Positions 13,775 through 15,187 of a DNA stretch of 55,817 bases are shown one piece after another (position 1 is the stretch's first letter; each line of letters starts with the position of its first letter). The notes beneath the pieces are model-generated. The model was not told the DNA's origin, ran no database searches, and saw only the letters and a program-made list of their open reading frames with translations. Where the stretch lies: NCBI GenBank assembly GCA_044892505.1, contig CM097882.1, positions 475,230,001 through 475,285,817 on the forward strand. The letters run 5' to 3'. The stretch is from Schmidtea nova (lineage: Eukaryota). Position numbers and translations under genes: made by a program.

Positions 13775-15187
13775 ATGAGAGCAGAAAGTGAAGCAGACTA
13801 CCAAACAATCGAGATTCTAAGAGGAGAGAATCGACAATGGGGAGTAAATGTGACGTGTGTAAAGTGTAAAAATTTACTGTTAAAACCGAGACAAACCGAA
13901 TGTGGTTGCAGGATGTGCACCAAATGTATACTACAAATAATCAGTGAAAGTGAGACAAGAAAGTGTCCAGAGTGTGAAGATAAACTACTAATCAACGAGA
14001 CGAAACCAGATAAAGCAATACAAAAGGAGATCTGGAAGATAAAAACCAAGTGTATAAACCAACCATGCGAATGGAAAGGACAAATAATCGAGCTAAGACA
14101 ACATCTGGGAAAATGCGAAAACAAGAAAGCGATATGTGAAAAGTGTCAACAGACGATAACCATCAAGCAGTCGAAAAATCACAAGGACGAGTGCAAAGCA
14201 GAGATAATAGAGTGTCAATACTGCGAACAAAGAGAGACGAGAGAAGTAATAGTAACAGAGCATCTCAATGTGGCAGAAGAGAAAGTGTGCAGAAAATTCA
14301 GAGGAATTTGTCCAAGTAATTGCGGAACCGGAGAAGAAGTGATGTTTAGAGGACATTGGGAACAGTGCGAGTCAAGACCAAGGAAGTGCGTATGGAGTAA
14401 ACAAGGATGCGCGATAAAGAAAACGAGCAAAGAGATGAAAGAGCATTTGGAAACCGAAACGGTACAGCACGCGGAGATGCTAACAGAAAATCTGGAAGAA
14501 ATGGAGCAAACCATACAGAAGCTGGGAAAAGAAATCGAATCTCAGAGGATAATGACGGAGTTATTACTGGAAACGAGAGAGCAATTCGAGCTCACCAGAG
14601 AGAAAATGATGGAGAAAATCAAAGTCATAGAGACGCTAGTAAAGGAAGTAAATGTACGACACCAAATGTGGGTGCGAGATGCAGAAGATATCGAGAGTTT
14701 ACCTGTCGCACCATATATATGGAAAATCAAGAACTTCAACGAAAAGTTCACAGCAGCAAAAGCCGGAAGTCAAGTGTCGGTAACAAGTCCACCATTTTAT
14801 CTGTGGAAAAATGGATACAAAGTTCGAATGAGAATTTATCCAAATGGAGATGGATCAGGAAAGGAAACGCATGTGTCATTATTCTTTGCGTTGTGTAAAG
14901 GTGGTTACGACGACATATTAGAATGGCCACTAGAAACAAAGGCTATAATGAGAGTGAGAAACTCGAAAGAAACAATAGCGAGAGTATTCAAAATTGATGG
15001 TAAGCACGAAGCTTACAAAAGACCAACCACAGAATGTTCATTAGCGACTGGAGAACCAAAATTCATACCACACCAAACAATGTGGGAGATGTTGTACGAC
15101 GACAACTTATATGTAGAGTTGGAGATCGAAAAGAAAGCAAGTACAACAGTGATGAACACGAAGTCAACGAAAGGATGGTTAGAGTAG
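13775..15187 (+). CDS. Intronless TRAF-family protein (RING, TRAF zinc fingers, coiled coil, MATH), 470 aa
   Basis: RING CVKC...CGCRMCTKC...CPEC; TRAF Zn fingers (CINQPCEWKG...HLGKC, CEKC...HKDEC); MATH motifs YIWKIKNF, SPPFY, GYKVRMRIYPNGDGSGKETHVSLFF, YDDILEWP. Confidence 0.93.
   Translation: MRAESEADYQTIEILRGENRQWGVNVTCVKCKNLLLKPRQTECGCRMCTKCILQIISESETRKCPECEDKLLINETKPDKAIQKEIWKIKTKCINQPCEWKGQIIELRQHLGKCENKKAICEKCQQTITIKQSKNHKDECKAEIIECQYCEQRETREVIVTEHLNVAEEKVCRKFRGICPSNCGTGEEVMFRGHWEQCESRPRKCVWSKQGCAIKKTSKEMKEHLETETVQHAEMLTENLEEMEQTIQKLGKEIESQRIMTELLLETREQFELTREKMMEKIKVIETLVKEVNVRHQMWVRDAEDIESLPVAPYIWKIKNFNEKFTAAKAGSQVSVTSPPFYLWKNGYKVRMRIYPNGDGSGKETHVSLFFALCKGGYDDILEWPLETKAIMRVRNSKETIARVFKIDGKHEAYKRPTTECSLATGEPKFIPHQTMWEMLYDDNLYVELEIEKKASTTVMNTKSTKGWLE

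Follow-up and report, generated by a model that had tools for sequence, protein, structure and literature searches.

The window analysed here, a stretch of 55,817 nucleotides from the Schmidtea nova genome (contig CM097882.1, positions 475,230,001 to 475,285,817), contains a single open frame on the plus strand, with its ATG at 13775 and its stop codon at 15185-15187, that encodes a TRAF protein of 470 aa (Table 1). The gene is located between the polyprotein and the 3′ LTR of a 29.6-kb, env-bearing LTR retroelement with 99.88% identical LTRs, TG...CA ends and a 4-bp target duplication, which bears out an earlier reading, made from the sequence alone, of a TRAF captured by a retroelement. The polyprotein forms a 4,402-codon open frame in the window and reaches ~5,085 codons when the upstream DNA (locus L031) is included, where gag zinc knuckles are encoded in the same frame and in register.

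Table 1. Features of the TRAF-bearing element in window coordinates
Feature	Position	Strand	Basis or remark
Polyprotein, 3′ part	1..13209	+	Env-like fusion glycoprotein, protease, RT, RNase H, integrase, ankyrin repeats, C-terminal membrane-protein-like tail
Small accessory ORF, ~116 aa, start uncertain	13334..13684	+	Syntenic in families A-D; homologues found
Spacer, 90 nt	13685..13774	+	TGTAAATA boxes, AATAAA, TAG acceptor-like site 1 nt before the TRAF ATG
Full-length TRAF, 470 aa	13775..15187	+	Pfam, PDB sequence matches
RING, C4C4-type (C28, C31, C43, C45, C48, C51, C64, C67)	13856..13975	+	Pfam, alignment
TRAF-type zinc fingers	14051..14479	+	Pfam zf-TRAF at aa 170-224; C-C-H-C patterns at aa 93, 121, 179
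Putative coiled coil (TRAF-N)	14480..14689	+	Periodicity and position
MATH/TRAF-C domain	14714..15127	+	Pfam, PDB matches
Accessory ORF, 386 aa, charged, coiled-coil-like	15277..16437	+	Homologues in families B-D
Accessory ORF, N-terminal hydrophobic stretch and likely transmembrane segment	16511..17065	+	Read from sequence
3′ LTR, 3,294 bp, TG...CA	17336..20629	+	99.88% identical to the 5′ LTR at L031:1074-4368
4-bp target-site duplication	20630-20633		Directly after the 3′ LTR
Family A spacers between accessory ORFs	13210-13333, 13685-13774, 15188-15276, 16438-16510

The earlier description of a complete RING-zinc finger-coiled coil-MATH protein in one frame held. The MATH domain was identified by Pfam (MATH_2, aa 314-451, E 4e-27) and is closest to PDB sequences of TRAF5/3/1/2 (TRAF5 chain, E 3e-27), and the RING and first zinc finger align with PDB chains of TRAF6/2/5/3. 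The zf-TRAF (E 1.5e-4) and TRAF3_RING (aa 28-67, E 2.5e-4) matches both fall under the curated Pfam cut-offs. Residues 236-305 lack proline and show a 3.5-residue hydrophobic periodicity (p 0.004, 2000 shuffles; p 0.14 for the second half by itself), consistent with a coiled coil before the MATH domain. The hallmarks of the TRAF family, an N-terminal RING with TRAF zinc fingers, a coiled coil and a C-terminal MATH/TRAF-C domain, are thus present in the expected order. In the TRAF-C domain, the Ser-rich stretch of vertebrate TRAFs and the Cys before their last strands are both replaced, so the receptor targets of the element TRAF may differ.

The size of the element (~30 kb), its long LTRs (3.3 kb), the 4-bp duplication and the single gag-env-PR-RT-RH-IN-ankyrin polyprotein match the published layout of Burro/GYPSM1 (PMC6431247), an element of ~30 kb whose ~5,000-aa polyprotein has env in frame after gag and ahead of protease, and which also has ankyrin repeats and cargo that includes MATH/TRAF-C and BIR. 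On this match of layout, the window element appears to be a Burro-type giant LTR retroelement, hereafter family A. As far as that account goes, it lists MATH_TRAF_C, BIR, ankyrin and BCL2-like motifs and proposes that Burro meddles with host apoptosis and ubiquitination; MATH/TRAF-C and BIR cargo in Burro is therefore already published. In the family A element, neither a Pfam match nor a BCL2 cluster in Atlas pointed to a BCL2-like domain before env, and ORF reading and Pfam revealed no BIR-containing IAP after the TRAF gene. The 64-aa tail of the polyprotein contains one P-x-E-x-x-acidic match, which is at chance level.

Further observations concern the rest of the element. The end of the polyprotein (window 11100-13209) is receptor-like, with repeated domain-like units, a transmembrane-like segment and a short tail; it has no family match and a dN/dS of 0.23, and its apparent intactness in 12/29 copies, which probably reflects limited locus flank, was set aside. 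An ORF for an IAP-type C-terminal RING without a BIR is located between the 5′ LTR and gag (L031:4913-5386) and has a homologue in family D. Two intact ORFs of ~210 aa each lie within the LTR (window 18848-19489 and 19601-20245), with no convincing Pfam family, and a perfect 98-bp tandem duplication (window 16989-17184) spans the end of the last accessory ORF. Pfam searches assigned no family to the 386-aa ORF and no convincing one to the ORF that follows it. Elsewhere in the window, a non-LTR retroelement on the minus strand (24730-34872, RT in 26199-28163) sits inside a diverged copy of a related LTR, and the start of its 1,183-aa ORF (29508-33059) is an in-frame segment closely homologous to the LTR ORF at 19601-20245. 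Decayed ordinary Gypsy pol (Pfam) and several transposase-like remnants, recognised by eye in translations, occupy 35042-37249, 39427-41760, 48654-49274 and 52099-53613.

The TRAF gene is not confined to this copy: at least 90 close copies (at least 94% identity) were found in the genome, 86/90 of which have no internal stop in the match, and 29/29 other loci examined align with the window element over 4.0-4.4 kb. Because the copies in a first family A set (pairwise dN/dS 0.086) had been picked on TRAF score, which biases the estimate, the analysis was redone on 29 copies picked on upstream DNA, independently of TRAF. These comprised 23 intact copies, 5 with stops and 1 partial copy; the TRAF dN/dS was 0.109. 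Variants common to several copies included fewer replacements than private variants (Fisher p 0.002). The small accessory ORF upstream is intact in 29/29 copies with a dN/dS of 0.06, and that of the 386-aa ORF is 0.13. Purifying selection of this kind shows that the element TRAF has a function, not which one. Third-position A+G is 0.72 in the TRAF gene, compared with 0.68 in pol and 0.69 in env of the element and 0.44-0.51 at nine host-type TRAF loci of the same genome; together with the constraint, this element-like composition indicates that the gene is old in the element.

Genome searches with database TRAFs yielded three further multi-copy element families, B (25/30 loci examined), C (5/30) and D, whose TRAFs are ~50-52%, 46% and 35% identical to that of the window and are located at the same position with the same neighbour genes. 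RT and integrase lie upstream of the gene in the 1/1 family B copy and 2/2 family C copies checked. The family B TRAF has a dN/dS of 0.116 (18 full-length copies), and between families A, B and C the TRAF dN is 0.36-0.46 and dS 1.6-2.5. Near-saturated dS across the four families, with the composition given above, upholds the long residence proposed from the sequence alone.

Family D can be described as a young, non-autonomous Burro derivative of 20-25 kb (L148:2559-10000 with L149:1-7958 on G000:C3; L146-L147 on G000:C1). No match to gag, env, RT, RNase H or integrase was found in the DNA upstream of TRAF in 12/12 copies. Protease and ankyrin repeats occupy one ~1,040-aa frame in the two copies that were ORF-read, the other ten having the same match spacing, and a weak Pfam ubiquitin-like match falls in the polyprotein region. 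The LTRs are 99.96-100% identical, both copies read end to end have 4-bp duplications (2/2), and the LTR start and primer-site region are the same as in family A, as expected for mobilisation in trans. Directly after TRAF, family D encodes a 399-aa BIR-RING IAP, with ≥97% identity in at least 104 copies; TRAF and IAP have dN/dS values of 0.16 and 0.19 in 12 copies picked by protein similarity, with a dS of just 0.05-0.08. In mammals, TRAF2 and cIAP form a complex. The TRAF gene is thus kept by selection in four element families, including one without its own replication genes.

The accessory ORFs are separated by spacers of 75-240 nt. The 401 bp of family A spacers contain the octamer TGTA[ACT]ATA, which also matches a Pumilio element, 6 times (shuffled mean 0.08), and the 13.2-kb polyprotein stretch does not contain it. 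In all four families, TGTAAA follows most accessory stop codons by 15-19 nt, and a YAG lies 0-6 nt before likely accessory starts, the TRAF start included, compared with 36/150 internal ATGs as background; this start-acceptor pattern is suggestive only, since start codons were chosen with the signal in view. The spacers would fit, suggestively, an operon resolved by spliced-leader trans-splicing, or alternative cis-splicing; candidate operons of flatworms have a median intercistronic distance of 99 bp (PMC12582326). It is doubtful that TGTA serves as a CFIm poly(A) element, since PMC5068929, in its accessible text, reports no such motif in planarians. Among the matches listed from four runs (contigs), no joint or loose end fell at the accessory acceptors, an outcome that speaks neither way.

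The RING of the element TRAF reads C43-G-C45-R-M-C48 where TRAF6 reads CGHRFC (Cys45 codon, 13907-13909), and with Cys45 in place of His it has eight Cys ligands. The motif was present in 30/30 family A loci examined. The sequence-only reading had regarded the His-to-Cys change as a variant of the element, a view that did not survive comparison: CGC is also found at 6/8 host-type loci of the same genome with the RING in frame (the remaining two have Asn or Ile). Among 159 proteins compared, the RING pattern was found in 120, with 84 His, 25 Cys and 11 other residues, the Cys-type group including Dendrocoelum TRAF-2, -4 and -5 and annotated echinoderm TRAF3-like proteins. An all-Cys RING is thus the usual state of flatworm host TRAFs and ordinary for this group. 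CNOT4, an unrelated protein that serves as a precedent only, is an active E3 with a C4C4 RING whose eight Cys bind two zinc ions (PMC4431670), so the His-to-Cys change need not impair function.

Nine low-copy host-type TRAF loci were found in clusters on C2 and C3 (G000:C2 452.92-452.99 Mb and 416.82-416.83 Mb; C3 43.80-43.90 Mb), one of which (L094) is repeated on the small contigs C121 and C201; two more, L098 and L116, are broken. The 10-kb stretches checked at 2/9 loci contain no element genes. The absence of introns had been taken, along with codon usage, as a sign of long residence, but it is not diagnostic here because 7/9 host-type loci also run unbroken from RING to MATH in one frame; in some of them no ATG precedes the RING, and a short first exon may be present. 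Quick maximum-likelihood trees were built from the full set and from a reduced set without UniParc entry P0037. The element TRAFs and UniParc entries P0010, P0037 and P0074 form one clade (SH-aLRT 97; 95 in the reduced set) inside a flatworm TRAF clade (SH-aLRT 99 in both trees). Its placement among host paralogues has a support of 84 in the full tree that is lost in the reduced tree (nested versus sister), and the biased composition of the element TRAFs is a caveat on any such placement. Synteny, independently of the tree, points to a single capture. A single capture from a flatworm host TRAF, whose RING was by then all Cys, thus gave rise to the element gene.

On the evidence of sequence and constraint, we favour, at somewhat better than even chances, a reading in which the element TRAF, as a trimeric adaptor or ligase, intervenes in death and innate-immune signalling that depends on host TRAFs, such that expressing cells survive. 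The gene, captured once from an all-Cys host TRAF, has gained the codon composition of the element, and purifying selection has kept all four domains while the element split into at least four families. The protein would be made from a processed sub-genomic mRNA, trimerise via its coiled coil and MATH domain, and act on the TRAF-dependent innate-immune and death signalling of the host cell, together with the element's IAP-type ligases (the IAP-like RING upstream of gag and, in family D, the BIR-RING IAP after TRAF). Cells that express the element would then survive or show a weaker response, and a working gene would give the copies that carry it more descendants. That the protein is a signalling mimic, as had been suggested from the sequence, is what we infer. 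Host TRAFs control cell survival in a planarian (PMC7586133).

The protein could instead be a decoy that joins mixed trimers with host TRAFs or takes their partners and blocks signalling while itself lacking ligase activity. In families A and B, the residue after the first RING Cys is Lys where TRAF6 has Ile, and as this position is presumably an E2 contact, ligase activity is uncertain; the altered MATH groove and a constrained coiled coil (dN/dS 0.095) would also suit a decoy. However, the RING is the most constrained domain in the 29 copies (dN/dS 0.056, compared with 0.113 for the zinc fingers and 0.091 for MATH), families C and D keep a hydrophobic residue at the contact position, and Lys also occurs there in some flatworm TRAFs outside the element clade. 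We consider a decoy unlikely. An equally improbable alternative is that TRAF serves the life cycle of the element, by promoting, via ubiquitin, the assembly or budding of particles or the removal of a silencing factor, and does not act on host death or immune signalling. The in-frame env, the ubiquitin-like regions (weak Pfam match in family D; also noted in PMC6431247) and the repression of Burro by PIWI (stated in the accessible part of PMC8532177) would be compatible with such a role. Against it, family D keeps both TRAF and IAP constrained without a gag or env of its own, though its proteins could act on helper particles.

Also raised from the sequence was the suggestion that mobile TRAFs might explain part of a host TRAF expansion. 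Domestication of element TRAFs as the seed of that expansion would be in keeping with host-type genes that are likewise unbroken and share the CGC motif, and with a reduced tree in which the element clade has no firm place within the flatworm clade. Yet the element clade includes 0/8 host-type loci of the tree; these loci join the TRAFs of Dendrocoelum and Dugesia, are clustered on C2 and C3 and have no purine bias. The host expansion therefore did not come from these elements, and a domestication origin is very improbable. A neutral passenger, or a TRAF restricted to this copy, is refuted by the copy analysis and has a negligible probability: 6/29 copies are broken or partial, with visible post-insertion decay, but dN/dS is 0.09-0.16 in three families and the open frame is kept across 35-52% protein identity between families.

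In the Burro elements of PMC6431247, as far as described there, MATH is part of ORF1 in S. mediterranea and of an accessory ORF upstream in D. tigrina, whereas the window element encodes a complete RING-ZnF-coiled coil-MATH protein in a downstream ORF. Section 7 of that paper gives its account of Burro without selection, host origin, a pol-less TRAF and IAP family or the spacer pattern. Among the papers listed in literature searches, no title or abstract opening mentions a full-length selected TRAF, a pol-less TRAF and IAP family or the spacer pattern, although some of these may be shown in Grohme 2018 and a Repbase report. Triclad host TRAFs (Dendrocoelum lacteum TRAF-2/-4/-5 and Dugesia japonica TRAF2-like A) share the architecture and form one clade with the element proteins, and the three Dendrocoelum proteins share the CGC RING (related entries are ~31-35% identical); unlike the element TRAF, these host genes are low in copy number, clustered and free of purine bias. 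Vertebrate TRAF2/3/5/6 differ in having a C3HC4 RING, the last ligand of TRAF6 being Asp in the alignment. Some viruses recruit host TRAFs or carry IAPs, as illustrated by EBV LMP1 and the baculovirus IAPs, and are likewise mobile genomes with regulators of host death signalling. A complete TRAF beside an IAP in one element is not known to have a precedent.

A broader proposal, which we regard as tentative and rather doubtful, is that the TRAF and IAP genes of Burro-type elements form a self-contained module for death and immune signalling, with operon-like expression resolved by polyadenylation and spliced-leader trans-splicing. The pol-less family (>100 copies) would keep this module under selection and pay for its mobilisation by host-cell survival, and element TRAFs would far outnumber host TRAF genes, confounding annotation and stress-induced 'traf' expression. 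Our score-ranked searches returned ~300 element-type TRAF matches and 9 host-type loci, both of which are lower bounds and not a census. Published studies have counted 99-282 MATH transcripts or contigs without resolving them, at least in their accessible parts (PMC6109357, PMC7586133). It is plausible that TRAF counts are inflated by mis-annotated element copies, three of the UniParc entries being placed inside the element clade. A complete TRAF kept by selection turns the domain label given to Burro into a testable claim, and, in view of these numbers, a clade-by-clade re-reading may be needed both for TRAF counts in planarians and for results from RNAi or expression work.
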